The position numbers and the translations under genes were made by a program. Under the pieces are notes generated by a model, which saw only the letters and a list, made by a program, of their open reading frames with translations, was not told the origin of the DNA and ran no database searches. From IMG/VR virus record IMGVR_UViG_3300025133_009393: a DNA stretch of 64,000 nt. One strand, written 5' to 3'. Positions 469 to 64,000 of this stretch are shown here, piece by piece. Position 1 is the first letter of the stretch, and every line of letters begins with the position of its first letter. The stretch comes from a virus.

Positions 469-2160
469 TTAATCCTCTATTTCCTGAAGCATCATTTTAT
501 ACTTCTTTCCGGTTTTGTTATTTACCACCTCTAAATAGTCCTCTTCCTCAACAATTGTCCAATCACCTTTATCATTTTTAAGATGTAAGTCGCCAGTATA
601 TATATTTGCCCAGCGATGAGCTGAAGATCCCAAATCATACGCATTGTCTGCACCTGGCAAAACACTTCCCGTAAGATCAGTTTGGCCGCTGACAGACAGC
701 TTGGAAGTTGGACTCGTAGTTCCGATGCCGACGTTGCCACCAGACGCTACAACCAAATGATCTTCACCAGAGCCTGCGCTGATCGCGAAATGGTTTAAAG
801 CGTTTGACGTAGCGTCACAACGAAAATTAACCAACTGGGTGCCGTCCAGGCTTTTAAACTTAATCCCACCGTCGCCGTTGGCGTGGCTACTTTGTATTGT
901 TATCGTCGGGTGCTCATCATAAATATGCAAGGCAGTGGCAGGAGCTACGATGCCGATACCAACCTTTGTGGTACCGCCGGATGCTGGATCTCCAAAATAG
1001 GCATAAGTGGTGTTTGCAGTCCCCTCTCCGACTAGCGAAAGTGTTGAGGTTGCTGCGGCGCCGGCGCTGGCCACGCCCATGTGGATAACGCCTTCTTCGG
1101 CGCCGGCGGTGACCGTGGTACCGGCGCCCAAGATCCACGCCATGTCCGCATCAGAATCTGCGGCGTCTTTACCGGTAAAGAAAATTGCGCCAACATCATC
1201 ACCAGCTGCTTCGTCGGTGGTGCTCTTGTAAAACCTCAATATCGAATGAATAGCATCGTCATTAGAATTTTCTATCAATACCTCGGGTTTATAAGTAACA
1301 GAGCTTTTGATATGAAGTAGCTCTGATGGGCTAGTTGTGCCAATACCGATCTTGCCATCAGACGCTACAACCAAATGATCCTCACCCGTAGATCCATTAA
1401 TGGAGAAGGATTCCATGATATTGTTTGTCACGGCGCATCTAATATTTGCCATCGTTGAGCCGTCGCCGCTTCGGAAAATGATCTGAGGGTCTCCATTCGC
1501 GGAGTTGCTGCGAAGAAGAAGCTTCGGATGTTCATCGTTAAGTTCTAATAAGCCCGTAAATTTATGTGTATCGTCAGACGAGTCGCCAAAGCTTGTGCTA
1601 CCGGTTGAACTAATATTAACAATCGTTTCGTTGTGAACGTTAACTTTGTATTCGTTAGCAACCAAGGTGCCAGATACAAAAAGCGAACCGGTCATGCGCA
1701 TTATTCCAGCCTGATAATCGTATGTTAAGTTTTTACTTCCGGATATCATTGTGCCGGCAGCGGTCGATCCAGAATTGAAAAGTATTTGTGTATTTGAACT
1801 AGAAGCAAGAAGCTCTTTTGAGAGCATCTTTATGTCAGTTGAGCCTACAACAATCGACGAAACAGTGTCGACGTAATCTATTCTTGCCCACCTAGATCCG
1901 GTGGTGTAAACAAGCCAATCATCAACTTGCCAACCAGTATTGCCCTCTAAATTTGTTGAGCCGGCAGTATTAACTTGCCAATATTCTCCAGTACTGATTT
2001 TGCCCGAGCCGCTTGGCTCGCCAACAAGGCCATTTGCATATCCACCATTTGCATGGGAGCCAGTAAATAAAAGGCCACCAGATAGTGCTGTGTTGGTACT
2101 AGCATTCCAATAGCCTCTGAATCTGGAAATTCCTATAAAAGATAAGCTGTCACTCGGCAT
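469..2160 (-). CDS. Fibre protein with VGIGT repeats and a conserved phage-fibre C-terminal domain
   Basis: KIGIGTTSP, KVGIGIVAP and NVGIGTTSP repeats. C-terminus WANIYTGDLHL..GDWTIVEEEDYL..NNKTGKKYK is typical of fibres of large aquatic myoviruses. SD-like AGGGGA upstream. Confidence 0.85.
   Translation of the reverse strand: MPSDSLSFIGISRFRGYWNASTNTALSGGLLFTGSHANGGYANGLVGEPSGSGKISTGEYWQVNTAGSTNLEGNTGWQVDDWLVYTTGSRWARIDYVDTVSSIVVGSTDIKMLSKELLASSSNTQILFNSGSTAAGTMISGSKNLTYDYQAGIMRMTGSLFVSGTLVANEYKVNVHNETIVNISSTGSTSFGDSSDDTHKFTGLLELNDEHPKLLLRSNSANGDPQIIFRSGDGSTMANIRCAVTNNIMESFSINGSTGEDHLVVASDGKIGIGTTSPSELLHIKSSVTYKPEVLIENSNDDAIHSILRFYKSTTDEAAGDDVGAIFFTGKDAADSDADMAWILGAGTTVTAGAEEGVIHMGVASAGAAATSTLSLVGEGTANTTYAYFGDPASGGTTKVGIGIVAPATALHIYDEHPTITIQSSHANGDGGIKFKSLDGTQLVNFRCDATSNALNHFAISAGSGEDHLVVASGGNVGIGTTSPTSKLSVSGQTDLTGSVLPGADNAYDLGSSAHRWANIYTGDLHLKNDKGDWTIVEEEDYLEVVNNKTGKKYKMMLQEIED
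734..1386 (-). repeat. Duplicated fibre module; near-identical ~35-nt stretches at ~734-768 and ~1352-1386, with a third protein-level copy at ~75-260
   Basis: ttgccaYcagacgctacaaccaaatgatcYtcacc occurs twice. The protein module DEHP..NGD..F.S.DG...RC....GEDHLVVAS.G..GIGTTSP is repeated. Confidence 0.8.
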
Positions 2161-2182
2161 AAATTATTCCCCTACTAACATA

Positions 2183-2189
2183 TAATTAG
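2183..2189 (-). promoter_or_regulatory. Putative phage late-promoter motif CTAATTA
   Basis: Lies ~23 nt upstream of the 2160 start. The same motif and spacing recur at five other gene starts. Confidence 0.55.
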
Positions 2190-2284
2190 GCTGCTATAAC
2201 TAAAATCGTCATGATAAGTTATAATATATGCGCTCCCCAAAAAGCCTTAACCTTGGCCGTTTCTTTTTGCAATCTTCTATATTT

Positions 2285-3358
2285 CTATCCAATACCCATG
2301 ACTTTCCCAACTGTTGCAACGCTAGACCCCATAATTTTTCCAAGTGAGGTATTTGCGGTACCGCCAAATTTACTACCACCTACCCAAATATACTGGTAAC
2401 ACCCTATCGTCGTTCCAGTACTGGCGTAGGCACGGTTTGTAATATCTGTGGTGGGCGCGGATTGGGCTGTTTGCCAATCGTATGTGCCGGCTCCGACCGC
2501 TTTGCTGACGCCCCCTGGTCTAAAGTTATCAGAGGCGTGGGCGGCGAATGTATCTGTTGTAATATCATCATATCCTAAACAAGCGGTTTCAGTGCCGTGA
2601 AAATCATCATCGCCGTCGACGCCATATGAAATACAATTTTTTATTGTTGTGCCATGAATTCCATAAGTTTGATCACCGCCAGAATTGTTATTGTATATAC
2701 AGTTATATACATTTGCAGCGTATATTCCTTTACCAGCGGTTTTTTGATAATCTGTCTGTACAGTGCAGTTAATAACATGGCCGCGGCCATCAACGTTAAT
2801 ACCGTTGGTATTAAAATCCTGCACTAAACAAGAATAAACCGTGGCCACGCTGCTGCCGCCGTATTGACCATCAATGCCAGTTGTTGCAGTCGAAGTGCCT
2901 TTATGAGTACATATAATCTGGCAACGATCAAGTGTCGCGCTTCCATAAAGTTCTACACCCCAAACACTTGATTTTATAATACAATTAGTTGCAGTACCGC
3001 CGCCGTAGGTGCTAACTGAGAAAGCAGAAATGCCGACAGAGGTGCCGGTATATATAATTGTGCAATGACTAATGGAGCATCCGCTAGCGCAGCTGACTAC
3101 ACCATGGCCACCGCCGCCGTCTCCAGAGTTGGTTATAATTACATCTTCTGGATTTCCTGTTGCACCAATAAAACTAAGGTTAATTCCACTTACGCCAGAC
3201 TGAGCCTTGATAGTTTCAGTATATGTTCCAGCGCCAATATATATGTTATCACCGTTTGATTCAATAGCTAGAGCACCAGCAATTGTGAGCTTGGCATTAT
3301 CCCAATCAGCACCACTATTGGAATTGTTGCCAGATTTACTTACATAGATATCCGCCAT
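2285..3358 (-). CDS. Right-handed parallel beta-helix (pectin-lyase-like) virion protein, putative depolymerase/adhesin
   Basis: N-terminal IYVSKSGNNSNSG..W.NAKLTI..AL..IYIGAGTY.E motif, repeated NC.I/SC.V beta-helix rungs, and C-terminal D.TNR...IGCYQY. Confidence 0.8.
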   Translation of the reverse strand: MADIYVSKSGNNSNSGADWDNAKLTIAGALAIESNGDNIYIGAGTYTETIKAQSGVSGINLSFIGATGNPEDVIITNSGDGGGGHGVVSCASGCSISHCTIIYTGTSVGISAFSVSTYGGGTATNCIIKSSVWGVELYGSATLDRCQIICTHKGTSTATTGIDGQYGGSSVATVYSCLVQDFNTNGINVDGRGHVINCTVQTDYQKTAGKGIYAANVYNCIYNNNSGGDQTYGIHGTTIKNCISYGVDGDDDFHGTETACLGYDDITTDTFAAHASDNFRPGGVSKAVGAGTYDWQTAQSAPTTDITNRAYASTGTTIGCYQYIWVGGSKFGGTANTSLGKIMGSSVATVGKVMGIG

Positions 3359-3374
3359 TGCACTGGGCCCCCCC

Positions 3375-4901
3375 CTAAGCTACTTCAACCCAAGTCTTGT
3401 CAGGATCAAACCATATAGTTGTATTTGAGCCGCTCGTGGCATATCCAATTATTCGTACAATGTCCCCAGAGCCACTAGGGGCAGTTGCGTCGCCGGCGCC
3501 GGCAGTTTCAGATAAATAAACTACGCTGCCGACGGCCTGGGTGCCATCAAGAGTATGCAGCTGCACAAAACCCCTAATAAGTACGCCGTATCCGTGATCT
3601 GAATGTGTTGCTACTCCGAGGAGGCCTGTGGCTGTGGCCGCGGCGTCCGCGTCGATGGTCTCCCAGGTACCATCTGATTTAAAATAATATATTTTTCCTG
3701 CAGTTAATGAACCTATGTTGGAGCCCATACCGTAAATAACATCACCATCTGAGATTTTACCGGCAGCGTCTATGTCGAGGAAGCCGGAGACCACGTTAGT
3801 GAGGGCGTTGAAGGTACCGTTGACTGACACATCGCCGGCGCCATTTCCTATTGTGACATTTACCCCGTCTTCTTCATCTCCGGATGTAACAATAAGACCC
3901 GGCTGCAGTTCACCATCGTGAGAGGCAACACTAAGAGTTAACCTTCCTTCTTCGGCGCCATCGGTCATGTCTGGAATATCTGCCTTAATGGTGGCATAAG
4001 TAGTTACTTCAGGGCTACCCGCGTCATTTTCACTAACAAAGGTAATATTACCAATAACATCATCGTCGGCAACATTAGCACCGTCTTTAAGGAATTTTAG
4101 TGTACCGCCAGTAGCGTCAGCGTTAGTGTTTTTGAGCGTGAGTACAGGGCATGCTGTTACACCGTTTCCTTCCAAGACTAGGCCGACATCGGCCTCGTGA
4201 GTTAAGGTAATCTCTTCGCTTGCGCCAAATTTAATTATCGATGCATCCGACTTGAGTGATAGGTTATCTTTAACTTCGACAGAGCCGGCGTCTGTAAGCC
4301 TTAAAGTTTCTGTGTCGTCTGTTTGGGTGAAGATAAGATCTTTTGAATCAACGATCTGTTTAATAGTGACGTCTCCACTACCGCTCTCAGTAATTGTTAA
4401 AACGGATGTGCCACCATCTTGGAAGTCTATGATTCCAGTAACTGAATCAAGCGTAACGTTTCCTGAGTTTGTTGATGTAATTTCAACACCGGTGTGGCCG
4501 TCGACTTTAACATTACCCGCGTTTGAATCAATAGTAATATTACCAGATGATGTATCAATAGAAACCGCTGCATCGCCCGAACTAATATCGTCTGCAGCTG
4601 ATGAGCCACCGCCGCCGCTAGCGGCAATAGAGCCGTCGTTAGTGAGGCGGACATCTTGGCCTGTATCATCAGTAAAATAAAGATCACATGGGGTATTTGA
4701 TTTAACCCAAAGCTGGCCATATGCATCAGTATCGCTATCAGCGTCCGCTTGTTCTTTGACAGTTACGGTCCCTTCAACAGTTAGTTTTGTTTTCGGGCTG
4801 GTTGTGCCAATACCAACTTTATCACCCGATGCATCAACTGATAATGTTCCAGAATCTACTTCTAAATTTGATAAATCTGATGTTCCTGCTTTAAATCCCA
4901 T
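3375..4901 (-). CDS. Fibre/decoration protein (VGIGT repeat, beta-rich shaft, C-terminal anchor-like domain)
   Basis: KVGIGTTSP; acidic Gly/Ser/Thr-rich body; C-terminal GSVVYLSETAG...TAPSGSGDIVRIIGYA resembles capsid-cement/fibre anchor domains. Confidence 0.7.
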   Translation of the reverse strand: MGFKAGTSDLSNLEVDSGTLSVDASGDKVGIGTTSPKTKLTVEGTVTVKEQADADSDTDAYGQLWVKSNTPCDLYFTDDTGQDVRLTNDGSIAASGGGGSSAADDISSGDAAVSIDTSSGNITIDSNAGNVKVDGHTGVEITSTNSGNVTLDSVTGIIDFQDGGTSVLTITESGSGDVTIKQIVDSKDLIFTQTDDTETLRLTDAGSVEVKDNLSLKSDASIIKFGASEEITLTHEADVGLVLEGNGVTACPVLTLKNTNADATGGTLKFLKDGANVADDDVIGNITFVSENDAGSPEVTTYATIKADIPDMTDGAEEGRLTLSVASHDGELQPGLIVTSGDEEDGVNVTIGNGAGDVSVNGTFNALTNVVSGFLDIDAAGKISDGDVIYGMGSNIGSLTAGKIYYFKSDGTWETIDADAAATATGLLGVATHSDHGYGVLIRGFVQLHTLDGTQAVGSVVYLSETAGAGDATAPSGSGDIVRIIGYATSGSNTTIWFDPDKTWVEVA

Positions 4902-4916
4902 ATTATTATTTCCTTA

Positions 4917-5375
4917 TTATAATCCTATGCCCTCGTCTGTCAAGCCGGATCCGGTTAGAGCAAACATTTGACTTGCAGGAATCCCTGTCAGCGTCGCGAC
5001 AACTCTATATTCCCTACTTCCATTTGAATCGTTTGGGGCTGAGATGTAAATTTCCTTGCACTTGACATCTGAAAATTCATACGCATCCTCATCGGTATCC
5101 AATTCAACAAAATGTTTACCAGTTATAACATAGGATCCGGCAGTATCTTTGGAGGAGTTAAAATGTATATAAACCTTACCAGTGCTAGAATCTCCATGCC
5201 TAATGACAGTGACACTTTTCGTCACATAAGGAAATACAATTTTATGCTCCTCGTTGTGACCTAAAGTCGCAGATCCAGTTATCCATGGCATACCAGAAAC
5301 TTGATATGAACCGACGTTATGGAGCCCGACTCCATATTTTGTAAAGGGTTTCGGGGCGCTCTTGCTATAAGACAT
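4917..5375 (-). CDS. Conserved virion structural protein (hypothetical)
   Basis: Good SD (AGGAG), beta-rich sequence GLHNVGSYQVSGMPWITGS, and preceded by the late motif. Confidence 0.6.
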   Translation of the reverse strand: MSYSKSAPKPFTKYGVGLHNVGSYQVSGMPWITGSATLGHNEEHKIVFPYVTKSVTVIRHGDSSTGKVYIHFNSSKDTAGSYVITGKHFVELDTDEDAYEFSDVKCKEIYISAPNDSNGSREYRVVATLTGIPASQMFALTGSGLTDEGIGL

Positions 5376-5393
5376 TACATTTCTCCTATTATT

Positions 5394-5636
5394 CTAATTA
5401 GCCTGGGGAATTAATTTTTTCCTTCGCTGTGTTTCCGCTTTTCTCGCATTTTCTTTTTTACGCAGACGCTCTCGTCTTTTCTTTGAAGATTTTTTTTCAT
5501 GATACATTCTTGATCTAAATTCTTCTATAATTTTCTCTTTTTTAACTTTTTTAATAAATCTTCTTATTAATCTATAAGGATCGCCCTTGACATCTCTCAA
5601 ACTTACGACAACATTTGCGGGTCTTTTTTTAGCCAT
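5394..5636 (-). CDS. rpsU: Phage-encoded 30S ribosomal protein bS21 homologue
   Basis: LIRRFIKKVKKEKIIEEFRSRMYHEKKSSKKRR aligns by eye with the bS21 core (ALRRFKR...GIL.E.R.R.FYEKPS.KR.R). 80 aa and very basic. Confidence 0.8.
   Translation of the reverse strand: MAKKRPANVVVSLRDVKGDPYRLIRRFIKKVKKEKIIEEFRSRMYHEKKSSKKRRERLRKKENARKAETQRRKKLIPQAN
5395..5401 (-). promoter_or_regulatory. Putative late-promoter motif CTAATTA
   Basis: Lies 20 nt upstream of the 5375 start, overlapping the end of bS21. Confidence 0.5.
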
Positions 5637-5646
5637 CTGTTTTCCT

Positions 5647-6045
5647 TTAGATTAAGTGTTTCCACTTACCCTTTGCCATTCCGATTATACCATCAATATT
5701 AACGCCGGCGTCGGAGGCTGAGATACCGGCAAGAGGCGAATGTGTTGATGATCCTTCTGGTGCAGGAGTGGTATTTTCGAAAACATCAATATTTACTTTC
5801 GTAGATTCATTTAATCTGCGAATTCTTTCTTGACGCTGTTTCTCATATTCTTCTTCTCTGTGTCTCTGCGTGCTGGTATTTTCATTAAACACAACGGCTG
5901 CACTCTCAGTAACAACTTTTTGATTGCCCATACCCTGCGCAACTTCTTTAATAATGCCAGATAGCACGCCCTCTTCAAAGATGCATTCTTTAATACATTC
6001 TTTAATAAGGGGTTTCAATACTTTTTTTAATTCATTCTTTTTCAT
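5647..6045 (-). CDS. Hypothetical head-associated protein
   Basis: N-terminal MKKNELKKVLKPLIKECIKE amphipathic helix; VVTE and RLNE are possible prohead-protease sites; located after the protease. Confidence 0.55.
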   Translation of the reverse strand: MKKNELKKVLKPLIKECIKECIFEEGVLSGIIKEVAQGMGNQKVVTESAAVVFNENTSTQRHREEEYEKQRQERIRRLNESTKVNIDVFENTTPAPEGSSTHSPLAGISASDAGVNIDGIIGMAKGKWKHLI

Positions 6046-6068
6046 TGTTTACTCTTTGGTGTTTTTCC

Positions 6069-6743
6069 TTAATAGGTGGCGCCCACGCTTTTGCGTGGAT
6101 TAATTGTAACCATCTGTCCGCCCTTATATTGCATCTCGCCTCCACTTCTGGGCTTGGGCTGTGCGTCGCGCGCGCGTCTCGCGGAGACTTCTTTTCTCCA
6201 GAATGCTTTTGAGGCTTCGTCGGCCTTCTTGGCGCGTTCGCGGTCTTCTTCGCGCCGGGCCCGGGCTTCTGGTGACTCCTCATACGCTTCTCTTTCCCAC
6301 CCTTTGATAAATCCAGTTTTAAACTTACCGAGAGCTTCACGAGCTAGCTGTAGGTCTTCCTGTTCTTCTTTAAATCCCTGGTTAATGCCTCCTTTCTCAT
6401 CTGGCCAATTGATATAGTGCTCCGGGGGCTCCATGTACTTTTCTACAAAAAGCGTATATAAATAGCGAAGAGTGAAGGAGTGCTCATTAGCAATGGACTG
6501 TTTGTCACGGTACTCACGTAAGGCAATTTCTTCTGCTATCTCTTTAAGTTTTAAATTTCCATATTCTTCTGTCTTCTTCCCCTTCCATTTTTCATCCCAG
6601 TGAGCCTGAGTTCCTGCCTCCGGAGGGGCAGTTTTTTTACCTAGGCCCAGAGCAGTTTTCGTACGATCCCAAAGACCCTCGCCTAAGATGGTCTCGATCT
6701 CTTCCTTGATAATTTCTTTTAATCTTGTTTTTGTAATTTTCAC
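6069..6743 (-). CDS. 'MKITK...IIKEE' leader protein, putative internal head protein
   Basis: GTG start directly after the protease stop. The N-terminus MKITKTRLKEIIKEEIE is shared with 18392..19009. Confidence 0.65.
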   Translation of the reverse strand: MKITKTRLKEIIKEEIETILGEGLWDRTKTALGLGKKTAPPEAGTQAHWDEKWKGKKTEEYGNLKLKEIAEEIALREYRDKQSIANEHSFTLRYLYTLFVEKYMEPPEHYINWPDEKGGINQGFKEEQEDLQLAREALGKFKTGFIKGWEREAYEESPEARARREEDRERAKKADEASKAFWRKEVSARRARDAQPKPRSGGEMQYKGGQMVTINPRKSVGATY

Positions 6744-6747
6744 GTAA

Positions 6748-7386
6748 TTACCCCTTTATAATATCATCAATAATATTGTTAATTTTTTGCTCTTTTGTAA
6801 GAGTATTGTTGCTCTCGTTTAAATATACACTAATTTCTGTATCCACATTTCCTGATTGCTTTCTGAGATACGCGCCGGGAGTTGAAGGCTCGGAGACCAT
6901 ATCAAAACAAATCAGTTGAAAATCATCTTCAACCATTGTCTGCCCATTAGATTCCCTTACAGTTCCCAATCCTCTAGACGAAATTCCAAGCTTAATGCCG
7001 GCCTTCAAAAGATCTTTCAAAATTCTTCCTGCCGGCGTGTCCAGTACTTCGAATTTAGCCATGACACTATCGCCATCCCACCACATTTTTGTAGCAAGAT
7101 GTGAAGTGTTTTTAAGATTGACAACACTGTCATCCGGATGATCTAATTCGCCCAAGGCTCTGCGCTCGCGGATCGACTTTTGATAGTTTTCAACTTCTCT
7201 TTGTAAAGTTTCTTTGCGATAGATTCTACCATTGCCATTTTTAACGCCGGCTTTTTGACACACGCCGACCAGATAAACAGCACCATTATCCATAGCATTG
7301 CGTTTTTCTGATTCAGTCATGACGTCGAGCGCGCAGCGGCCATCCGGACAGAGTTCAAAGTATTCTTGTAATAATTGTTTTGACAT
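6748..7386 (-). CDS. Prohead core protease (T4 gp21-like, peptidase S77)
   Basis: Motifs N.NGRIY, ALGELDHP, TPAGRIL, LGISSRGLG and FDMVSEPS. Confidence 0.95.
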   Translation of the reverse strand: MSKQLLQEYFELCPDGRCALDVMTESEKRNAMDNGAVYLVGVCQKAGVKNGNGRIYRKETLQREVENYQKSIRERRALGELDHPDDSVVNLKNTSHLATKMWWDGDSVMAKFEVLDTPAGRILKDLLKAGIKLGISSRGLGTVRESNGQTMVEDDFQLICFDMVSEPSTPGAYLRKQSGNVDTEISVYLNESNNTLTKEQKINNIIDDIIKG

Positions 7387-7399
7387 ATTTTTTATCTAA

Positions 7400-7416
7400 G
7401 CGAGGCTCACCCTCGC
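7400..7416. promoter_or_regulatory. GC-rich hairpin (GCGAGG-N5-CCTCGC) 14 nt upstream of the protease start
   Basis: Perfect 6-bp stem at 7400-7405/7411-7416 with no U-tract on the coding strand. Confidence 0.45.
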
Positions 7417-7472
7417 CTGGTTTTACTTCCTTTGCAACAACGACGTACATCAGGAATATTTCTTTTTCTCAT
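7407..7472 (-). CDS. Putative 21-aa basic Cys-Cys peptide MRKRNIPDVRRCCKGSKTRRG
   Basis: ATG at 7472 preceded by GAGGT SD. It fills the gap between the DUF1360-like gene and the protease, and is below the ORF-track cutoff. Confidence 0.45.
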   Translation of the reverse strand: MRKRNIPDVRRCCKGSKTRRG

Positions 7473-56100: not shown

Positions 56101-59100
56101 TGCTTGTCCGCGAGACTAACCAAGCCAGACCCATTTTTTTCATTGAAGCCACCCGGGTGGCGACCAGTTTTGTCATAGCAAAAAGCCATTACGTAATCTT
56201 CATACGCAAAGTCGACTATAGTTTTGCCACTTTTTTCATAATGTACATTCTTTTCTTCATAATCAGTTTCGTATTGAAACGTAAGCGGCCTCTTTAAAAT
56301 AACAGCATAATAGCGTTTACGTCCGGACGGCCAATTGTCCATCCATTGCTGCCACCAATCATCTTCGCGTATTAACACTGCAGGAGTATGATTGAAAACA
56401 TATTTACCATCAATATATAAAAACTCCGGAGCGTCGTTGGGCTTGCCGCGCTGGGCGCCTTCGATGTGACGGTCGTCGGTGATCTTCCAGCCACGACCCT
56501 TATCGGCAAAAACAAACGATTTTGATTCTTTCTGGCGTGTGATCATTGGGCCACGACCGGGGGCTACTGCTCCTAGCTGGTCCAAGCCAGGATCAGTAGT
56601 AAATTTTGGAGCAGGATACTTTTTATAATCAGGGGCGCTAGCGACCCATTCATCCATAGAGCCCAAAACAGCAGCCATATCAGCCATCACCGCTGCTTCT
56701 CTTGCGGGGTCCGGACTAATAATTGCCTTAATAGAGGATGCTTCTTTTCGAAAAATGTTTTTAATTATGCCAAAGATGGTATCCAAAACCATTTTGTTGG
56801 CCCGAGCGATGGACGGGGCGACGCCGCCAGGAATTAAATCTTCACAACGAAGAGTGGGAAGTTTATTTCTCAACAACTCAGAGGGATCTTGTCTCAGTAG
56901 GCTCATTAAATCTTTTATTTTTTCCAAATTACCATCAAGCTCATTTTTAAGTTGAGATTCGATTTCTTCATCCGAAAATCCATGAGATAAAAGGGCGGCG
57001 CGTTTGCCGGCAAGAGAATCAAAATCTTCACACAAATCTTCAATGTAAGGAACATATTCTTGATACTCCTCACACACGTCTAAATCAATGTAGCTACCAA
57101 CATGTGTAAAGAACATACGGATATCCGGCAAAGTACTGAGTGCTGGTAAATATTCTTGATAGTCTCTTTCTATTAAAGATCTTATTAACATCAGTATACT
57201 TTGTGGGCTCACACCATTAAAGAGGTTGCATAATTCTCGTCCGGTTAACATTCTCGCCACGTTTTTCATAAATCTAGCGGAATTGTCTGTTGGGAGATCA
57301 TATGCTTCGTAAGCTTCCCTTAAGGCTGGGCCAGCTGCTTCACTAACAAATGCCGGGAATCGATTTTCGAGTACTCCATATTCACCGGAACCAACACTTG
57401 GGCCCGGGCCTGGCTCTGTAAGACATGCATTCATCAGCTCGGACATTGCACCTTCGACGAGGCCGGAAACGATACCGGCAGTTATCTCCCAAAGCATATC
57501 TTCGTAAATTTCTACTAAGTCTCCATTAGAGCTTGTTATCTTCTTATATTTTGGAAACGTAAATTTTGGTATTGTCGGGAGATCCGGAACAAAATCCATA
57601 AGGAATTGCCAATCAAACGAACCTTCCGGAGTTGTGAGATCCTCAAATACAGCTGTGGGGTCTTCTAAGAAATCTCCCGGGAGGTCCAACATTGTCTGAG
57701 TAATATCTGTACAGATCTGCTTAAAGTCAAAAAATTGTTTTAACTCTTGTATAAAAGCATCTACATCTTCGGCAACGACGGCTGTGTCTGCCATAAACTC
57801 CGCAACGTTTCCGGAATCATCACCAGGGACGCCGCTTTGAGCAGCTGTGTATTCTGCCGGAGACATGCCAGTGCCAGCTTCGACGGCTTCCCCTATAACA
57901 ACGCCAAAAGGATCTGCTACATAATCAGATTCTACTTGAGACTGCATTTCGGATTGGGCGCCGGCGGCGGAAGAAGCAATTGCTTCTACATCATGTAAGC
58001 CTTGTTGAATAACACTATTGCTGTTGGTGCTTTCTCCTGTGAATATTTCCTCCGGAGTTCCGCCGAAAGCCGAAGTGGTTAAGCCATCGATAGTTCCCAT
58101 CGTTACTGCTCCAGAAGCACTTAAAACCAAACGCATTTCGTCGACACCAATAGCTTTAAGCAGCTCTCTAAATAAATATTCGCATAATGCTTCGCCAGTA
58201 AGTGGAATTCCAGCTAAATGTGATAGACACTTTAATATCTGAGCCCAAACATGTTTCATATCAACTTGATTGAAAAGTTTCATATAGATATCTTCAAATG
58301 TTTTCCACTCTTCAGATTCTAGCCAAGATGGTTCATATATAGGATCGCTGTCTGAATCTCTCTCTTTCGATGCAGCGAGATAGGCCTGTGTACGACTTTT
58401 TCTAATAGCAACGGTTTTTTCTAGTTCTTGTTGTTCATGATATTCTTTTTCTGTCAAGATTGATTTTTGATATAGCTCATCCAATCTTTCTTTATCTTTT
58501 TTCTCTTTTCCTTGTACAGCTTCGTAGTCAGAGGCCGTCATCCCAGAGCCGTTAGGATAGATTTTAACAGCAGGATATATTACGCCGTTGACGAACTCTA
58601 TCCATTCATCTGTATTTCCTTTTTTCTTGGTATCGTACGCGTATATTTCTTTATACAGAGAAACTAAATGTAATGTTCTGGGTGAGATTTTATTTCTTAA
58701 ACATTCCAATCCAACATGGCATATAGACAATGCAGTGGTTTTTGCACCAAAAGACACCTGAGATATTAACATATTATCCTGGGCACATTGAAATTCCATA
58801 TATGCTCTCGGAGTTTTTATACCCTCTGGAAAGCCTTCCGGCTCGTATCCCTGGCCTGGATATTTCAAAAACTCATCAACTATGTCATTCAAACTTTCAA
58901 GCTGTCGGGCCTCATGAGCCAGGTCAAGATGATGTATTACTCCGCCTCTTCTTTCAAAATCTTTAACTTTTTTATCATATCTTCTCAATATGCTGGCGAT
59001 TTTTTTCATTGTTGTGGAAAAAGAAGAAGCCCCCAAGTCAAAGAACGTATTAAAACAGCCTCCATGCTCGGCACAATATTGTTTATGATCATGAAGCTTT

Positions 59101-60638
59101 GCCTTGCTTATATCACCTTCGAAGGGTATGCTATCTATGAAAGCTCGGCTGACCGCAACAAAAACGTGGCGGCGGCCGTCTCTGGGGTCTATATAGACAC
59201 CAAAAGAGTCCGGAAACCTCTCCGTCTGATATCGGCCAGCGACGTTTGCCGCGGCTGTAGCCATAGCCCCCGGGGGTGGATTCGGTACAAAAGCTATATC
59301 GTTAGATATCGGAGCTTCGGTTGGTGGGGGCTTGGGATCCAGCAAAGATATTTTTTCCATCAACGCGGCGCGCGTATTCAGGCCGGCTGATTCCAAATTT
59401 TTTCTAAAAAACTTAACTACTTTTTCTACGCCATCTGCTCTTTGTTCAAGATAGCCCGGGCTTGGTAGAAGACGAACTACTTTTACACACCAAAAATCCT
59501 CTCCAAGTAAGCCTGGATCAGGAATTGGAAGATTCGGATCTTTTTCAAGCCAAGCCAAAGGATAGCGACGTATCTGAACCAGGCGTGTTTGCCACCTCCG
59601 TAAGCCCCATTGCCCTTTTTTTGGCAGCGGTATATCTTGAAGTACGGAAGGGATAGCAATGTTTGGATTTCGTTTTACTCTTTCATAGCCATGAAAATTT
59701 AACTGATACTCGCGAGTTTGAATAATGTCCAAGCCATGTTGTGGCGCCTTCGGGTGTGGAATTTGATCTAACTTAGAATCCCAACGCTCTCCTTTGATAT
59801 AAGGGCCGGGCTTATTCGGGCCTAGGCCTACGTAGTACGTTGTAAAGGTCTTCAGTCTGCACAACATAGGGGCACAATCGTCCATCTTTTTGTACCAATT
59901 GAAGCCTTTGTTTTTGCTCATCGAGTCAGCAATCGAGGCTGGTGTCCAGGTATAGTTTTTTGGTGGCTGTGAAGGGAATGGCAGCGGATGCCATGGTGGC
60001 TTGGCCGGATCGGTTTCGGGGGCCGCCCCTTCCAAAACAGGTGGGAGATCATCTAAAAGCTTGACTAGTGTTTCGCGGAAATTAGCTTCATCAATATTGA
60101 AACTAGCCTCATATCGAAAAGAATATCCATCCAAATCTCCGTGCGTTTCAGCGGGATTAATAGAGTCAGCAAAAGGAAAGTCTGCACCTATGGTGAAATC
60201 CTTAATCTGAGAAAACCAGTCTATAATAAAACTCGGAGGCGGATCAGGATGAGGGTTCACATCCGGATCAGATGTACCCCAAAATTTAGGCCAGTCACTA
60301 TGAGTGCCGGTACCAATGACCCATCTAAAATCTATCATCTTTGTGAGTTTTTTGGAATATTGTATAGCAGAAGCATGAGAAACCGGGTCGCCGTCGTCTA
60401 TACCTACAGACTCTCTCCATACTCTAAATTTTTCACTATCTTTAGTAAAGAATTCATAGAAAGTCTTCTTAACTGTAAATTCAGATGACTTTATTATTTG
60501 CTGAAGTGAATCCTCTGAAATTTCTAAAGTCCAGCCGCCGGTATCATGATACTCTTTCCAAAAATTCTTCTTCGTAGAAACTCCTGAAATATTATATTGA
60601 ATATTCGAAGGCGATTTTAATGTTATAACTGTTCCCAT
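50145..60638 (-). CDS. Giant (3497 aa) tail/baseplate-associated protein with C-terminal coiled coil and hydrophobic tip
   Basis: Uninterrupted ORF between the spike and gp25. Largely helical, with a coiled coil at ~50400-50760 and a Pro-rich/hydrophobic segment at ~50240-50390. Confidence 0.6.
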   Translation of the reverse strand: MGTVITLKSPSNIQYNISGVSTKKNFWKEYHDTGGWTLEISEDSLQQIIKSSEFTVKKTFYEFFTKDSEKFRVWRESVGIDDGDPVSHASAIQYSKKLTKMIDFRWVIGTGTHSDWPKFWGTSDPDVNPHPDPPPSFIIDWFSQIKDFTIGADFPFADSINPAETHGDLDGYSFRYEASFNIDEANFRETLVKLLDDLPPVLEGAAPETDPAKPPWHPLPFPSQPPKNYTWTPASIADSMSKNKGFNWYKKMDDCAPMLCRLKTFTTYYVGLGPNKPGPYIKGERWDSKLDQIPHPKAPQHGLDIIQTREYQLNFHGYERVKRNPNIAIPSVLQDIPLPKKGQWGLRRWQTRLVQIRRYPLAWLEKDPNLPIPDPGLLGEDFWCVKVVRLLPSPGYLEQRADGVEKVVKFFRKNLESAGLNTRAALMEKISLLDPKPPPTEAPISNDIAFVPNPPPGAMATAAANVAGRYQTERFPDSFGVYIDPRDGRRHVFVAVSRAFIDSIPFEGDISKAKLHDHKQYCAEHGGCFNTFFDLGASSFSTTMKKIASILRRYDKKVKDFERRGGVIHHLDLAHEARQLESLNDIVDEFLKYPGQGYEPEGFPEGIKTPRAYMEFQCAQDNMLISQVSFGAKTTALSICHVGLECLRNKISPRTLHLVSLYKEIYAYDTKKKGNTDEWIEFVNGVIYPAVKIYPNGSGMTASDYEAVQGKEKKDKERLDELYQKSILTEKEYHEQQELEKTVAIRKSRTQAYLAASKERDSDSDPIYEPSWLESEEWKTFEDIYMKLFNQVDMKHVWAQILKCLSHLAGIPLTGEALCEYLFRELLKAIGVDEMRLVLSASGAVTMGTIDGLTTSAFGGTPEEIFTGESTNSNSVIQQGLHDVEAIASSAAGAQSEMQSQVESDYVADPFGVVIGEAVEAGTGMSPAEYTAAQSGVPGDDSGNVAEFMADTAVVAEDVDAFIQELKQFFDFKQICTDITQTMLDLPGDFLEDPTAVFEDLTTPEGSFDWQFLMDFVPDLPTIPKFTFPKYKKITSSNGDLVEIYEDMLWEITAGIVSGLVEGAMSELMNACLTEPGPGPSVGSGEYGVLENRFPAFVSEAAGPALREAYEAYDLPTDNSARFMKNVARMLTGRELCNLFNGVSPQSILMLIRSLIERDYQEYLPALSTLPDIRMFFTHVGSYIDLDVCEEYQEYVPYIEDLCEDFDSLAGKRAALLSHGFSDEEIESQLKNELDGNLEKIKDLMSLLRQDPSELLRNKLPTLRCEDLIPGGVAPSIARANKMVLDTIFGIIKNIFRKEASSIKAIISPDPAREAAVMADMAAVLGSMDEWVASAPDYKKYPAPKFTTDPGLDQLGAVAPGRGPMITRQKESKSFVFADKGRGWKITDDRHIEGAQRGKPNDAPEFLYIDGKYVFNHTPAVLIREDDWWQQWMDNWPSGRKRYYAVILKRPLTFQYETDYEEKNVHYEKSGKTIVDFAYEDYVMAFCYDKTGRHPGGFNEKNGSGLVSLADKQTLKRLMDEQGTYQIAGSPLPRGYPTSPIDFGEGGNTDDDGYKNWCRYHARGHDLEPGLPHRSCTTLIPLQELRDRGLTFELPQQDPAALMKAEPPLKPFQRLYDSLSDRSALKRESAPDVRYVPGHHVPITGEEEVWIGGYWSYGELSKDDEAEADAMTRSELAIEAKEVATSSQSKLVWVPGHYKQPAHWVKGEWIYDDKDSTVKHILTVPRSEAQSQLLTAVNGPTSTAGSYGTDPSHKDPTTMKPEFFEMIRDYDPGAEKAMRQAFSLALTGRPDETYEEVSGITSKATSKLMDRVNQSSLEVSYEVIESDIDASGKSSDAFRINVDNSGLKLIDELETKDWSQASLNAMEASGIDITKQPRSVADLFGKLTVAQFTRRLPWKSNPSSDADPNFAVKDFSLTQQSEEKISAVFANHIHPFETERIVHKMRERTLVSPFFSVKFIDKFIRKLFLTSYSDICEFNDGTVAERLLGLEPLREQIDNRLREVLCRQPLLISEEDKKIMQQDAMYLEAVEGSKDQALGLEPIEEASLDGLLQMRLRLSAMQILFEYLPVATTFDVRPAMHKQYFRSLAINRVMNQLKSESPEYYELIGARCSSILLDELADGRGITQHPNKSYHKHTYEIDKNGDGWAVEIVSPGADPQGFGRPHKHRIKNYVLHKPIYTVGLDDGKNYNHKHELEEDHKRWPAHKAIERIFERQYSVMVATMNRLLDDLGHSHLRIKNYHDFVDNLIIAPFASGLNTNQLYAVGRPAAHQFGIAGPTEHPDYGLYINSKSPDNNLVEYTNDWNKGAAQKTKNGGALVANHSANAYPSNLFKMSVSNQEKLLRDGGFILQPYLWVQHRNAAGDPQTPGQHSKIYNTAFNKTYPMPQPTDTLGNPMAIDVPDLATLDPFIQVFEDKDRPYEKLDEAGVSSIDFWGEVFEKIAGPFDYLYDVVMETPLGHRRPFGWNIAHGHVPEVGAHAAKDADKYQEMLQKVDDLFDIIYSFDCMRPCQGIFRYKDDISASRDVAVNKITKSKSTPWKVLTVDVPAPDVPPAGTMLDYATLETQTSAGLKNLVGFRKLGPAFPFASPNHNAGHTIDGLPRLVHDVYESYVKDKASPNIGYEFLHEDGEPLDLHMNEDGTMDVQTTDYGFFPVSNPNYTGIITLEAVHKQYLRYRKAYKLSFLESSAVDLYMEEDDPQFKENQIKLEAAVKNAEHAAYSRLVDLKNKFIRLSAMNTTLHLGLTGVEAKARAHIDVHMTVGETPMDAGQLYNMSDEYYDFNPQYDRLVYNPKYPPGYVMTAEGAKETWTGGNNPVGLESDPLVMVAGGPTVANTDKYVKLHTTSDRRVFGWSHVLENANLIMIDSAFGQLADEHGWHNAETHFSEILEQGMAYPRISLEYGQGGRGSYNYGGMIPSTTEAGAYFEEVSEWEKQNAGSPLNSHSTGPDDFHAGGNYRPGYKYSFWSGEYDSITVPKTGHVNATTLQYFKQYFICMKYGLRLMYVPPADKYGGGRHQGETKEHEDYRAEITKGLSDAMDMLYSDAKKAQDAGSVGTKGIMNSFELMMAKQKAFDLNEYRDRIEYYETSGGTEDGLEHRSLRVHPIPFADALIDVEEIYCTGAPLEFGAFRPPDVGGRGTLAASYAKAVPELMNQLRKTPEYNLLFNHIFPYDRLLSFMCLHAGLSNQDLRMENRFKATREIILDFVMGLIEEGEFELPYSMRPYGSIANYQIGTDAQSTSSHNTPWGDIALKMLYTTPRLILKGVVTLTDPCVSTAITINDLIMTIVNTSIMIAEEVRSGIIASVGLVLSELKTQLEKAESAVGTDDKPGMMEIAIDTTELSIDKLQKEANKQQPPDPSVQFELEQKQQEVAELKAEYEKIKATVQGIKDGIQSAEDALEEAEVEMREAIDEVKKVVEAISPFMVPAISFAQFPVNLPYGFLFPPPPFGWGVGPPMTLFGFIYCLLLITEGLFDAFDQEKEELAQELLEGVDPCAHVPTS

Positions 60639-60651
60639 ATCTTATTCTCTT

Positions 60652-61689
60652 TTAGTTTGTCATATTCCATTTGCTCAAGCTTGGCCACATGCCGCTGGCC
60701 ACGACTTTTTTGTATTCTTCTGAAGTGATCGTCCGGACCCCGGTCTTAGTTTTCTCTAGTTCAACTCTTCCTAAACCCCAATCTATTTTCAAGGTTTTTA
60801 AAAAGCGCTGAAAGTTAAGAATTTCAGTCTTTTGCTCTTTGATAACATCTATCATTTTTTGAGGCAAACTTTTAACCCCCTCTGGCGAGGGAGTGGTTTT
60901 TCCAAAATAAAACGGCGAATGATGCTCGTGGAGCGCAATAACTTCCCATACTTTCAGCGCGTGTTCCATATAACGATCGTACATCTTTGTTGAGTCAATT
61001 ATCTGATCTATAATTACGCTAAGCAGCATATTTAAATTAAGACCTTTTACTAGCGGCTGAATTGGGTAGTCCTCGTCAGTATCCCTTTGTGGATTTTCAG
61101 ATTGATTGCCGGCTATAAGATGAATTCCGCCAACAGATTGTATTTTTCCGTTTTTTGGGCCGCGCGAATCATAAGGATCAGTATAAGTAACTAATTTTAT
61201 AGTTCGGCGGCCGACGATGCGTACATCATCAGCCTTGACAGCTACGGCAGATAACCCCTTTCCAGAGCGAAGTATTTTGCTTTTTATGTCTAAATAATCA
61301 TCTATATTTGCTTTTTGACTAACATATATTCTGGCTGCGTCGCGACGAAAATCTGTGTTTGTATAGGTAGCAGATCCATTTTGATAGGCCTTTGTATATC
61401 TTCCGACAACGATATCAACAGCTCCGCATTGGGTGTGTGTGCGGCCGGCGTAGCCACTGGCTTTTGAGCCCGGGCGGTCGCGTCCGAGAACAATATAACA
61501 ATTATTTGCATCACCTGAGCCTGGACACAGTTCTTCCCAATCAGCTTTAATAAACTTTGCTGAGCCATCGATGACATTACCTCGATCTAGATTCGCATCT
61601 ATTCGATCCTCAACCGAGATTCTATCGTGTTTGTTTTTTATTTTTGGATCTAAATTATCTTGATCTAATGATTTTTTTCCGGTACTCAT
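60652..61689 (-). CDS. Baseplate spike/gp5 C-terminal-like protein
   Basis: Beta-strand repeats (AARIYVSQK, SAVAVKADDVRIVGRRTIKLVT), PLVKG.NL..LL, and an HEH metal-binding tip motif. Follows the gp5-like gene. Confidence 0.6.
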   Translation of the reverse strand: MSTGKKSLDQDNLDPKIKNKHDRISVEDRIDANLDRGNVIDGSAKFIKADWEELCPGSGDANNCYIVLGRDRPGSKASGYAGRTHTQCGAVDIVVGRYTKAYQNGSATYTNTDFRRDAARIYVSQKANIDDYLDIKSKILRSGKGLSAVAVKADDVRIVGRRTIKLVTYTDPYDSRGPKNGKIQSVGGIHLIAGNQSENPQRDTDEDYPIQPLVKGLNLNMLLSVIIDQIIDSTKMYDRYMEHALKVWEVIALHEHHSPFYFGKTTPSPEGVKSLPQKMIDVIKEQKTEILNFQRFLKTLKIDWGLGRVELEKTKTGVRTITSEEYKKVVASGMWPSLSKWNMTN

Positions 61690-61707
61690 TTAATTCCTTT
61701 TGTTTCT

Positions 61708-64000
61708 CTAAGCTTTAAATCTTTTTAATACTTCTATCCATGATATGTTTGATTTATTTCCTTTTGCTACCGTTTTATTGGCGCCGCCGGTGCCCATCCA
61801 AACGCATAGCATACTTGCCGGATGAGTTTTTTGCATTTCTATAACAGCCTCGACGTTGCCGTAGACTTTTCCTGTCTTAGGATTAAACCGGCCGGAGTCT
61901 ATCACGGGAGCAAATTTGCGAGAAGCCTTACGAGCTTCTTTATGATGTATCTTAATCTTCTTTTTATAAGTCTTGGCAATTGTTGCATATACCATCGGAG
62001 CATAAAGATCAAACATTTGATTTAACTCTTTAGTTCTCGCCTTCAACACTCCGGATGACCATTTCGACATGCATGTATTTGCAAGAGGAATCCCGGGAGC
62101 AGTAGCACGAAAAGCTCTTACAAATTCTGACATCCTGCCAACCACATCCGGATAAAAAGGCGATCCACTGGTGCCTAGCCACTGCTTCTCAGCATTAACC
62201 CAATGAAGCTTCGAGCCTAGTTTTAAGGCGCGTTGGGCCATTAAAACACCCTCTCTTGCTGCTTGTTCGTAGCTCGTACAATAACTATACGCCCAAGTAT
62301 GAAGAGGGACATTTGCCCTGACAGAAAGATTCTTTATAATTGCACAATGTTCTGCGAAGCTCTTAGCGCCTCTGTAATTTTTTTCAAACTTCATCTCGCC
62401 GCAGCCGCTCTTCGCACACACAAAGCCAAAATGCTTGATATATTCCGGATTAATTGCATCTCCTGTCGCTCCGGTAGCATAATACATAAAACCAATGGGA
62501 GGGCCTGCGCCGCTTCGCTTAACAGCTGTTTTGAGAGCGCCTTTTAGGACAGGAGCATACTTGTATGTTTTGCATGGAACACAATTGGGCGGCTTTGATT
62601 TGTTGAGCTTGTTTTCTAATTCTTTTATCGTTTCTTGTATTTTGTTTAATTCCTTTTTTAAGTCGTCTGGTGGATTTTCGCCAGCAGCCTTGATCTTTTC
62701 TTGTATTTCCGTTCTTTGTTTTTGAGCTGCAGCAAGACGTTGTTCGTCTGCCGCATTTGAATTATCAGTTCCTGATTTTCCTTCTTTTTTGAAGACCTCT
62801 CCTCCCTCATCAAGAAGTTGGTCTTTGTTCTCCTTGGAAGCAGTTTTATCAGCCTCGGCGGAGGGTGACTTACTTTTTTCTGCAGGAGCTGGGGCTTCCT
62901 TGCCCGGGGCGGGTTTAACAGCTCTTGCTTTTGCCCCGAACCTTATTGCGATGTTAGCAACATATTCTGTTGCACCTTTTTCATCCAAGTGTAAGCCATC
63001 ATGATCTGTTTTTCTACCCATGTACTTGGGAAGATATTTTCCCCAATCTTTAATTGGATCAACATAATATAAAGTTTTGCCATAGCCCCACTGTGAAGAT
63101 AGTGAGGAATTAAAATTTTTGTTGATCGTTGTTCGATAAGCAAATTTTCCTGGCTTTTTTATTTGATGTAAATCATCGCCGGTGTACCTGCCGCCGGGTA
63201 CAACCGGCGGGCAGCCGCATATTATAATTGCACCAGATTGAGTTGGGTTAGTCCAGCCGGCTTGTTGGCGTATTCTCTGTATTAATTTAACCATATCCGG
63301 AGCAGCTTGGGCCTGCCATGGCTCGCCCTTGTTATTACCACCCATACTAACAACAATTAAGGCCGGCTTATATTTTGCAATATATTCAGCAATACAACCC
63401 CACAACTCAGCTTTTGCTGGATTGGTTGCAACTTTACATTTAGATGCATCCGCAGAAAGCCATGGATCAACTCTTGCTCCGGAGCGGTGGACGCGTTTGG
63501 TTTTCCACCCAGAACTCTTGAAATATGCTTCCAATGTTTTACCAAAATATCCGGCTATTTGGCTATCTCCAAAAACAAGACATCTATTGTTTCCCGTCTT
63601 CGGAACTAATGAACCTTTTGCGATTGGGAACGTACTTGTATCAATGGGCGAGCCGCCGCCTTTCCCATAACTCAAGCACCCCTTAATACATTTTTCAGCA
63701 CCCTGTTTTGCAGACATAGCAGCCCTCGCGGCGGCGGCTGCGTCGAGCATGCCAAGCGGCGGTGCAATAACTGGTCCTAAATATATTGGACCGGTCCAAT
63801 TTTGTTTATTTTGATAATCAACCCACACCAATTCTCCAATTTTTGGCTCTGGTACATTGTTATCTTTGGCCGTAAAAGTTGGATGCATATCAATAATATT
63901 ATGATCATCCGAATGTGCCGGCTCCATAACCGGCGAATGAACTTCTGGGATTCTTGCTTTTATCTGTACCCGAACTGACAAGCCGGCTCCAACGTCAGTT
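61708..64000 (-). CDS. gp5-like baseplate hub: OB fold + SGNH hydrolase + coiled coil + GH25-like TIM barrel (5' end outside the window)
   Basis: The frame is open to the window edge. ARIPEVH and P.IGELVWVDY...PIYLG are gp5/VgrG OB motifs. SGNH blocks FGDS, SG, GGN and DGLH. C-terminal FVCAK..TWAYSY..WVNAE..DLYAPMVY. Confidence 0.78.
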   Translation of the reverse strand, partial: TDVGAGLSVRVQIKARIPEVHSPVMEPAHSDDHNIIDMHPTFTAKDNNVPEPKIGELVWVDYQNKQNWTGPIYLGPVIAPPLGMLDAAAAARAAMSAKQGAEKCIKGCLSYGKGGGSPIDTSTFPIAKGSLVPKTGNNRCLVFGDSQIAGYFGKTLEAYFKSSGWKTKRVHRSGARVDPWLSADASKCKVATNPAKAELWGCIAEYIAKYKPALIVVSMGGNNKGEPWQAQAAPDMVKLIQRIRQQAGWTNPTQSGAIIICGCPPVVPGGRYTGDDLHQIKKPGKFAYRTTINKNFNSSLSSQWGYGKTLYYVDPIKDWGKYLPKYMGRKTDHDGLHLDEKGATEYVANIAIRFGAKARAVKPAPGKEAPAPAEKSKSPSAEADKTASKENKDQLLDEGGEVFKKEGKSGTDNSNAADEQRLAAAQKQRTEIQEKIKAAGENPPDDLKKELNKIQETIKELENKLNKSKPPNCVPCKTYKYAPVLKGALKTAVKRSGAGPPIGFMYYATGATGDAINPEYIKHFGFVCAKSGCGEMKFEKNYRGAKSFAEHCAIIKNLSVRANVPLHTWAYSYCTSYEQAAREGVLMAQRALKLGSKLHWVNAEKQWLGTSGSPFYPDVVGRMSEFVRAFRATAPGIPLANTCMSKWSSGVLKARTKELNQMFDLYAPMVYATIAKTYKKKIKIHHKEARKASRKFAPVIDSGRFNPKTGKVYGNVEAVIEMQKTHPASMLCVWMGTGGANKTVAKGNKSNISWIEVLKRFKA

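Follow-up and report, generated by a model that had tools for sequence, protein, structure and literature searches.

We studied a 64-kb stretch of DNA from a marine T4-like phage (IMG/VR record IMGVR_UViG_3300025133_009393; hereafter the window, positions 1..64000) in which the palindromic hexamer GCCGGC recurs about once per kilobase. GCCGGC is the peak of a broader bias toward gap-free, GC-rich palindromes and is not a peculiarity of one hexamer, and its excess acts on DNA rather than on translation. We tentatively read these patterns, with a confidence that falls a little short of an even call, as arising from a bias at the level of DNA that is shared across the phage family, creates and maintains GC-rich gap-free palindromes, and is opposed by restriction avoidance.

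GCCGGC excess under codon-aware null models

The window has a GC content of 41.3%, and all 35 open reading frames (ORFs) called in it, which cover ~98% of its length, lie on the minus strand. We count 71 GCCGGC sites, or ~1.1 per kb, throughout all of the genes (1060..63987), compared with 4.9 expected from base composition alone (order 0) and 8.6 expected under a first-order Markov model (order 1). The sites start at the following positions.

1060-12887: 1060, 1102, 1753, 1960, 2486, 3492, 3498, 3834, 4284, 5704, 6997, 7031, 7246, 9474, 9545, 10581, 11353, 12887
16931-30543: 16931, 17351, 18956, 19377, 22299, 22317, 22566, 25260, 25312, 26116, 27690, 28050, 28276, 29791, 30543
31262-44721: 31262, 32898, 33698, 34146, 34857, 35712, 36354, 36678, 37503, 39102, 39123, 39414, 40017, 40272, 41064, 42940, 44721
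47402-63982: 47402, 49232, 51099, 51786, 51879, 52161, 52932, 53550, 53837, 55271, 55404, 55534, 57006, 57960, 59382, 61108, 61444, 63256, 63362, 63917, 63982

An initial annotation of the window had reported at least 68 sites, in more than one reading frame, where ~4 would be expected at ~40% GC. The full count bears this out: all 16 of its example coordinates are among the 71 sites, its expectation is close to our 4.9, and the sites fall in three frames, with 54 read as GCC-GGC (Ala-Gly), 12 as xxG-CCG-GCx and 4 as xGC-CGG-Cxx (the remaining site lies outside the called ORFs). The chained site that it described is also present, at 3492, where it is in frame as Ala-Gly-Ala-Gly within a 508-amino-acid (aa) ORF (3375-4901, minus strand). 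This site is listed here with one example of each of the two less common frames.

3492..3503: 12-nt perfect palindrome GCCGGCGCCGGC, in which two GCCGGC share a central GGCGCC
7031..7036, minus strand: second-frame GCCGGC (ACG-CCG-GCA, Thr-Pro-Ala) in the prohead protease gene
11353..11358, minus strand: rare-frame GCCGGC (GGC-CGG-CCC, Gly-Arg-Pro) in the large terminase gene, using the rare Arg codon CGG

The spacing of the sites in the window is almost random (coefficient of variation 0.90; ~0.9-1.2 across comparisons). Structural and replication genes alike contain them, at a density of 0.5-1.1 per kb across all modules, and the 37 kb upstream on the same phage are equally rich (29/4.2, 17/2.3 and 16/2.3 observed/expected).

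The excess survives every randomization that takes codon usage into account. When synonymous codons are shuffled within genes, 21.7 sites are expected (z 11.9), and when the shuffle is confined to blocks of 100 or of 40 codons the expectation rises to 25.8 (z 10.6) and 32.9 (z 8.7), respectively. A shuffle that also keeps phase-specific dinucleotides gives 28-39 expected sites versus 70 observed in coding DNA (z 9.1, 7.4), the strictest null being the one with 39 expected and z 7.4. CpG at codon junctions is ruled out as the cause of the excess by this dinucleotide-preserving shuffle. Under every codon-aware null, GCCGGC ranks 1 of the 4096 hexamers in the window. It also ranks 1 under the dinucleotide-preserving shuffle in three of the whole relatives that we compare (G001, 113 kb and 62% complete; G002, 190 kb; G003, 186 kb; G005, 203 kb), with 78/38 in G001, 82/32 in G002 and 178/88 in G005 (z 10-13).

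GCCGGC is enriched 2.5-10x in all three frames. The second frame of the window holds 12 sites versus 4.7 expected, and the rare frame holds 4 versus 0.9 (5/0.5 in G001 and 12/2.2 in G005). Non-coding DNA, pooled over four genomes, contains 15 sites versus 1.1 expected. Because all three frames and the non-coding DNA are enriched, we conclude that the excess is imposed at the level of DNA and is not translational.

It is important, nonetheless, to weigh the alternative that the excess is a by-product, arising from the usage of codons, dipeptides or codon pairs, from patches of high local GC, or from recoding against other short words. GCC-GGC does account for 54 of the 71 sites, and GGC is the commonest glycine codon (42%); but 54 of the 134 Ala-Gly dipeptides in the window (~40%) are written GCC-GGC versus ~15 expected from codon usage, the usage of the dipeptide itself is barely distorted (1.10-1.15x), and the excess extends to every frame and to non-coding DNA. 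Tightening the null raises the expected number of sites from 22 to 39, yet the excess outlasts all nulls with z at least 7.4. GC-rich hexamers of any symmetry are mildly elevated (1.10-1.25x), but the strong excess is limited to the palindromic arrangement of the same triplets, since the non-palindromes GCCGCC and GGCGGC reach only 1.1-1.6x. As for recoding, the window has purged just four hexamers, and the synonymous alternatives for Ala-Gly overlap with none of these. The by-product account is thus already largely refuted, and we consider it very improbable.

Other all-GC palindromes (CGGCCG, CCGCGG, GGGCCC) are near expectation in the window (z ~0-1.8), and an equal enrichment of all GC-rich hexamers is ruled out by a control matched for symmetry class. 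The initial annotation had called for codon-shuffled hexamer ratios and would have given way if the enrichment disappeared under control for codon and dipeptide usage, or if all GC-rich hexamers were equally enriched. Neither occurs: GCCGGC stays first of the 4096 hexamers, with z of at least 7.4.

Gap-free GC-rich palindromes as a class

Several other palindromes accompany GCCGGC in excess, among them GGCGCC, TCCGGA and GTCGAC, whose frequency the initial annotation had also remarked upon. GCTAGC is in excess as well.

Companion palindromes in excess, window 1..64000: GGCGCC 40, TCCGGA 51, CCCGGG 27, GTCGAC 19, GGTACC 23

Under the dinucleotide-preserving shuffle in blocks of 150 codons, we find 40/21.5 for GGCGCC (z 5.5), 51/31 for TCCGGA (z 6.1) and 27/15 for CCCGGG (z 4.9). 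The core tetramer CCGG occurs 300 times in the window versus ~116 expected, and when its occurrences are tabulated by flanking bases, as NCCGGN, the excess is confined to the palindromic combinations. Palindromic hexamers are shifted upward as a class (Mann-Whitney p 7e-14 in the window).

The strength of the bias is graded by length and by GC content. Gap-free palindromes are enriched 1.08-1.17x as 6-mers, 1.21-1.36x as 8-mers, 1.33-1.54x as 10-mers and ~1.5x at 12 bases and longer. All-AT 6-mers stand at 1.02x, all-GC 6-mers at 1.58x and all-GC 8-mers at 2.4x. The effect is also seen in 8-mers centred on AT, TA or GC, which cannot contain GCCGGC (1.13-1.23x). In a composition-matched control restricted to all-GC hexamers, palindromes are enriched 1.59x, compared with 1.25x for mirror repeats, 1.18x for direct repeats and 1.16x for complement repeats.

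The bases that flank the core hexamers behave in the same manner. All four complementary flank pairs are over-represented, by 1.47x around GCCGGC, 1.29x around GGCGCC, 1.76x around TCCGGA and 1.44x around CCCGGG, whereas C..C and G..G flanks, which are equally GC-rich but non-complementary, are depleted. This coupling of flanks argues for self-complementarity as such, rather than base-specific contacts of an enzyme that reads six base pairs.

Purging and turnover across the phage family

In IMG/VR the window has a large family of relatives, whose large terminases (TerL) are 65-89% identical to its own. The closest cultured relatives, Flavobacterium phage immuto and Microcystis phage Mel-JY01, are at ~44% TerL identity, and a megablast of the window against the phage collection returned no near relative. 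The window matches an ENA marine contig at 100% identity and a JGI marine virome contig at 99.96%, and all public runs containing it are marine metagenomes. No psbA gene (PF00124) was found in the relatives searched, and so there is no sign that these are cyanophages.

Richness in GCCGGC is common to G001, G002, G005 and most of 32 related IMG/VR loci, and on the TerL tree the rich state is found in basal as well as derived clades. On that tree, GCCGGC and GGCGCC have been lost completely on at least three separate occasions. The two hexamers switch state independently; for example, locus L041 has 9 GCCGGC and 0 GGCGCC. In G003 ~20 GC-rich palindromes are purged, and avoidance is seen both in G003 and in two other clades. 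Each palindrome tends to be either enriched or absent, and the pattern of purging is as expected under restriction.

Four palindromes are missing from the window itself.

Absent from window 1..64000: GAGCTC, CTCGAG, GTGCAC, CACGTG (order-1 expected 12.3, 9.6, 7.3 and 5.7, respectively)

Of all hexamers, only GAGCTC and CTCGAG are absent from all five genomes (the window, G001, G002, G003 and G005), at 0/118 and 0/85, respectively, and they are also absent from all 32 related loci longer than 12 kb. The avoidance of these SacI-type and XhoI-type sites is specific to the exact 6-mers, and it suggests either a conserved host restriction pair or a nuclease that the phage encodes and whose sites it avoids. 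The loss of GTGCAC and CACGTG, by comparison, is lineage-specific purging: both are nearly absent from G001 too, but GTGCAC is enriched in G002 (36 versus ~17-22 expected). CGGCCG, CCCGGG, GCTAGC and TCCGGA are likewise enriched to different degrees in different lineages.

Shorter sites and particular regions can be purged as well. CCWGG is reduced to 1 site in G005, versus ~100-200 in relatives, and GGCC is almost gone from G003 (12 sites). The terminal ~17 kb of G005 (L110-L111, ~187-203 kb) contain no GCCGGC and no GGCGCC, the final site being at 186,655, and a further 17 palindromes do not occur anywhere in the last 22 kb (from 181 kb onward), despite this being the most GC-rich part of the genome. 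The terminal region contains many small ORFs on both strands. This palindrome-free end could be an early-entering region under restriction pressure, or it could be foreign DNA.

Mel-JY01 (L140, 1-50000; 35.6% GC) shows the same split between enriched and absent, with a different set of palindromes. CCGG occurs 308 times in its 50 kb, ~6-fold over expectation, and CCCGGG 44 times versus 6.9 expected; TCCGGA and CACGTG are enriched, and GCCGGC stands at 0. GATC and CTAG are wholly absent, and ~18 six-base palindromes are at zero.

Positional conservation of GCCGGC is not detectable, and the sites turn over approximately as neutral synonymous positions do. Between the window and G001, four-fold synonymous sites are near saturation (identity 0.375), and at shared Ala-Gly dipeptides the frequency of GCCGGC in G001 is 0.36 where the window has a site and 0.39 where it lacks one. 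Over 15 pairs of relatives, the site is retained in 6/20 cases at moderate divergence and in 14/77 far cases; matched NNC-NNC codon pairs give 14%, and usage at equilibrium is ~38%. Identity between the window and the other contigs that contain it is 99.96-100%. The initial annotation had proposed following the gain and loss of sites among relatives, which yields this neutral-like turnover, and it had offered a packaging or recombination signal as one possible function. Such a signal would consist of few sites, conserved in position and often clustered or oriented; it is unlikely here because the 71 sites are spread near-randomly and turn over neutrally.

Besides fibres and two giant ORFs (4722 and 3497 aa), the window encodes the following proteins.

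6748-7386, minus strand: prohead protease, assigned to Peptidase_S77
9164-11104, minus strand: portal
11108-12682, minus strand: T4-type large terminase
14675-17827, minus strand: Rad50/SbcC-like protein

The C-terminal ~140 residues of a fibre-like 563-aa protein (469-2160, minus strand) are similar to structural proteins from phages of Synechococcus and Prochlorococcus (36-41% identity). An 80-aa ORF at 5394-5636 (minus strand) has a faint match to ribosomal protein S21 (PF01165), and the Mel-JY01 gene in the matching position is annotated RpsU S21. At ~6699-6794, beside the gene for the prohead protease, this phage's ENA contig (L124:5041-5367) shows a local rearrangement or duplication relative to the window and the JGI contig, which may be a strain variant or an assembly artefact.

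Upstream of the window, the same phage (L132 and L136) encodes a bacterial-type DnaE Pol III alpha of 1144 aa with PHP and DNA_pol3_alpha domains, in a replication module that also contains a PolA-like protein, RecA/UvsX, DnaB, a class II ribonucleotide reductase, ThyX, dCMP deaminase and Cpn10. The part of L132 and L136 that was read showed no family B polymerase of the T4 type.

Possible origins of the bias

The initial annotation had tentatively attributed the sites to a cognate C5 methyltransferase acting together with Vsr-like repair, and had suggested searching for these enzymes. Our searches for enzyme families covered five relatives, four of them CheckV-complete, and returned no C5 methyltransferase (PF00145), no Vsr (PF03852) and no MutH (PF02976); two routes to hypermodification, a ThyA-like hydroxymethylase (PF00303) and DpdA (PF01702), were likewise absent from the five. 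The variants of GCCGGC that carry a T are not clearly depleted, with GTCGGC/GCCGAC at 1.1-2.1x and GCTGGC/GCCAGC at 0.7-1.0x. Judging from these five relatives, the bias is not produced by a phage-encoded pair of C5 methyltransferase and Vsr, and that part of the earlier proposal finds no support.

The DNA methyltransferases that were found are of the adenine type only. Dam-type adenine methylases occur in G002, G003 and G005, and PF01555 occurs, among the relatives, only in the purged G003; the phage of the window also encodes a PF01555 enzyme.

L136:14298-15068, plus strand: PF01555 DNA methyltransferase, 256 aa, DPPY motif, same phage, ~39-40 kb upstream of position 1 of the window

This gene follows a ParB_N-like gene of 345 aa and precedes the gene for the DnaE-type Pol III alpha. 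The best solved relatives of its product are adenine methylases of H. pylori (5hek, 5hfj; E 4e-32), and on this sequence evidence it is assigned to the adenine type. Since GCCGGC contains no adenine, an enzyme of this type cannot modify it. A comparison of the gene content of the rich G005 and G002 with that of the purged G003 yields 16 genes, among which there is no nuclease or methylase and no candidate reader of the sites; those annotated are a GT4 glycosyltransferase, a UDP-glucose dehydrogenase, a NUDIX protein and a thioesterase.

The hallmark of Dcm/Vsr very-short-patch repair is a depletion of the T-containing deamination products. In E. coli this repair, as described in 1992 by Bhagwat and McClelland and by Merkl et al., reportedly shifts oligonucleotide frequencies around the methylated palindrome. 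The present case differs from it, with no depletion of T-variants and no Vsr in the relatives searched.

The nearest precedents are the highly iterated palindromes (HIPs) of cyanobacteria. GGCGCC in Calothrix PCC 7103 and rCCGGy/GCCGGC in Oscillatoria PCC 10802 are alternate HIPs, each with a cognate host 5-methylcytosine (m5C) methyltransferase, for which biased repair without any function of the sites has been proposed (Elhai 2015, PMC4390886). The same two hexamers are in strong excess here, in an otherwise unremarkable genome. Elhai's cases, however, are cellular genomes, whereas ours is a phage family with only adenine methylases detectable; moreover, both hexamers are enriched together here, and the bias reaches other palindromes and their flanks.

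HIP1 (GCGATCGC) is an 8-mer over-represented 15- to 300-fold, with sites conserved between genomes and a periodicity of 10-90 kb (Xu, Lawrence and Durand 2018, PMC5861425). Similar to HIP1, GCCGGC is a hyper-abundant GC-rich palindrome that occurs about once per gene, within coding regions, and has no known function. Unlike HIP1, it exceeds the expectation from base composition ~14-fold and that from codon-aware nulls 2- to 3-fold, and its positions show no detectable conservation. Of the properties that define a HIP, GCCGGC thus has the abundance of a leading outlier and independence of frame and coding status, but, in the phage genomes searched and in small samples of sites, neither a methyltransferase able to modify it nor detectable conservation. 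The initial description of a HIP-like, methylation-linked system therefore holds for the HIP-like excess at the level of DNA, whereas the link to methylation finds no support in these phage genomes.

Phages ordinarily avoid restriction sites (Rusinov et al. 2018, PMC6286503), and the purging in G003 and two other clades, together with the family-wide absence of GAGCTC and CTCGAG, conforms to this behaviour; in the window and most of its relatives the sign is reversed for GCCGGC, GGCGCC and other palindromes. A genome-wide surplus of short perfect inverted repeats, larger for longer arms, has been attributed to template-switch correction of quasi-palindromes, first described in T4 (Lavi et al. 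2018; Ripley 1982 in T4; PMC5941160). The excess reported here also grows with arm length and depends on complementarity rather than base identity, and the mechanism was first described in a replication system of the T4 type.

Two further accounts place the cause outside the phage's own copying machinery or in a function of the sites. Following Elhai's model, host m5C or N4-methylcytosine (m4C) methyltransferases for GCCGGC/rCCGGy and GGCGCC/GrCGyC, with methylation-linked mismatch repair (Vsr-like or a MutH analogue), would convert near-sites in replicating phage DNA. This would explain why the two leading hexamers coincide with the alternate HIPs of Oscillatoria PCC 10802 and Calothrix PCC 7103, both of which are linked to a methylase of the host (PMC4390886); biased repair also predicts turnover without positional conservation, and the lineage differences in CGGCCG, CCCGGG, GCTAGC and TCCGGA would be expected if the hosts differ. 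But the T-variants are not clearly depleted, and many methylases would be required to account for palindromes of 6-12 nt, including AT-centred ones, and for flanks coupled by complementarity. The trait persists across a family whose TerL identity to the window falls to ~65%, the phages themselves do not encode such enzymes in the five relatives searched, and there is no psbA to mark them as cyanophages. We therefore find an origin in the hosts improbable.

It is about equally improbable, in our view, that selection acts on the density of sites, with a two-fold symmetric phage or host factor reading GCCGGC, and to a lesser extent other symmetric GC-rich words, so that ~1 site per kb is kept wherever it happens to fall. 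Such a reader might mark phage DNA as self, or serve in compaction, protein loading or nicking. The near-uniform density of 0.5-1.1 per kb in all modules, the first rank of GCCGGC among 4096 hexamers in four genomes, and the stability of the trait across deep divergence are all in keeping with this account, as is an excess that extends to non-coding DNA and to every frame even at the cost of rare codons (CGG); HIP1, too, has been argued to be under selection (PMC5861425). Unlike HIP1, however, GCCGGC shows no detectable positional conservation, and lineages with every such site purged persist (G003), so that the sites are dispensable. Recognition by a homodimer predicts independent preferences of the half-sites, not an excess of all four complementary flank pairs, and it does not predict a graded dependence on length and GC over unrelated palindromes. 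The comparison of rich and purged gene contents, moreover, gave no candidate reader.

Under the reading that we tentatively favour, a family-wide bias at the level of DNA would write GC-rich perfect palindromes wherever coding permits, and between genes as well. The sites would be continually replenished and held at a high equilibrium frequency, rather than being fixed functional elements. The force would act on self-complementarity, growing with palindrome length and GC and coupling the flanks, and its source would most likely be a copying or repair bias of the phage replication-recombination machinery, in which one arm of a near-palindrome serves to correct the other. Restriction avoidance would be the counter-force: where a host cuts a palindrome, the lineage would purge that palindrome to zero. 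Such a drive, combined with purging that depends on the host, would leave each palindrome either enriched or absent. The dependence on complementarity, length and GC, together with stability over deep divergence, favours a process intrinsic to phage replication, recombination or repair. Templated correction of one arm by the other is the model that suits the data best so far, although we consider it unlikely that the process is specifically this one.

Several observations weigh against this reading. Spaced inverted repeats with gaps of 1, 3 or 4 bases show no enrichment (0.92-1.13x, with no consistent trend), and a small excess at a gap of 2 is explained by longer gap-free palindromes; a template-switch mechanism therefore fits only partly. 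The template-switch excess known from other genomes includes spaced hairpin repeats, whereas the present one is gap-free only, is strongly GC-dependent, and has two hexamers far above the rest. Palindromes of equal GC are also very unequally enriched, with GCCGGC at 2.0-2.6x and GGCGCC at 1.5-2.2x but CCGCGG, GCGCGC and GGGCCC at ~1.0-1.5x, so that sequence-specific factors or partial purging are needed in addition. Flavobacterium phage immuto, a distant cultured relative, shows no palindrome effect, and the tests of conservation rest on small samples (n = 20-77). Finally, the negative results for enzymes concern phage genomes rather than host enzymes, and more than half of the phage ORFs are without a family assignment, so that an unrecognised methylase, nuclease or DNA-binding protein is possible.

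A broader formulation accommodates such a protein. In a 'palindrome drive' of marine T4-like phages with a DnaE-type polymerase, either a process linked to replication and repair or an unrecognised protein that reads DNA symmetrically would write palindromes, and each 6-bp palindrome would then be enriched or purged according to the hosts met. We regard this formulation as possible but doubtful.

Palindrome avoidance is classically exemplified by phages. An entire phage family biased in the other direction, accompanied by sister lineages purged of the same words, constitutes a natural on/off system for asking whether HIPs arise through selection or through a bias in repair or replication. No cognate methylase, the obvious first candidate, is detectable in the phage, and the signal bears the mark of a process driven by complementarity. 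If a palindrome drive does operate, the composition of the phage DNA would be distinct from what restriction pressure produces. A bias of this kind, if true, would amount to a mutational pressure capable of shaping synonymous sites throughout the genome, and it would matter for host prediction based on k-mers, for models of restriction avoidance, and for how phage replisomes of the DnaE type handle self-complementary DNA.

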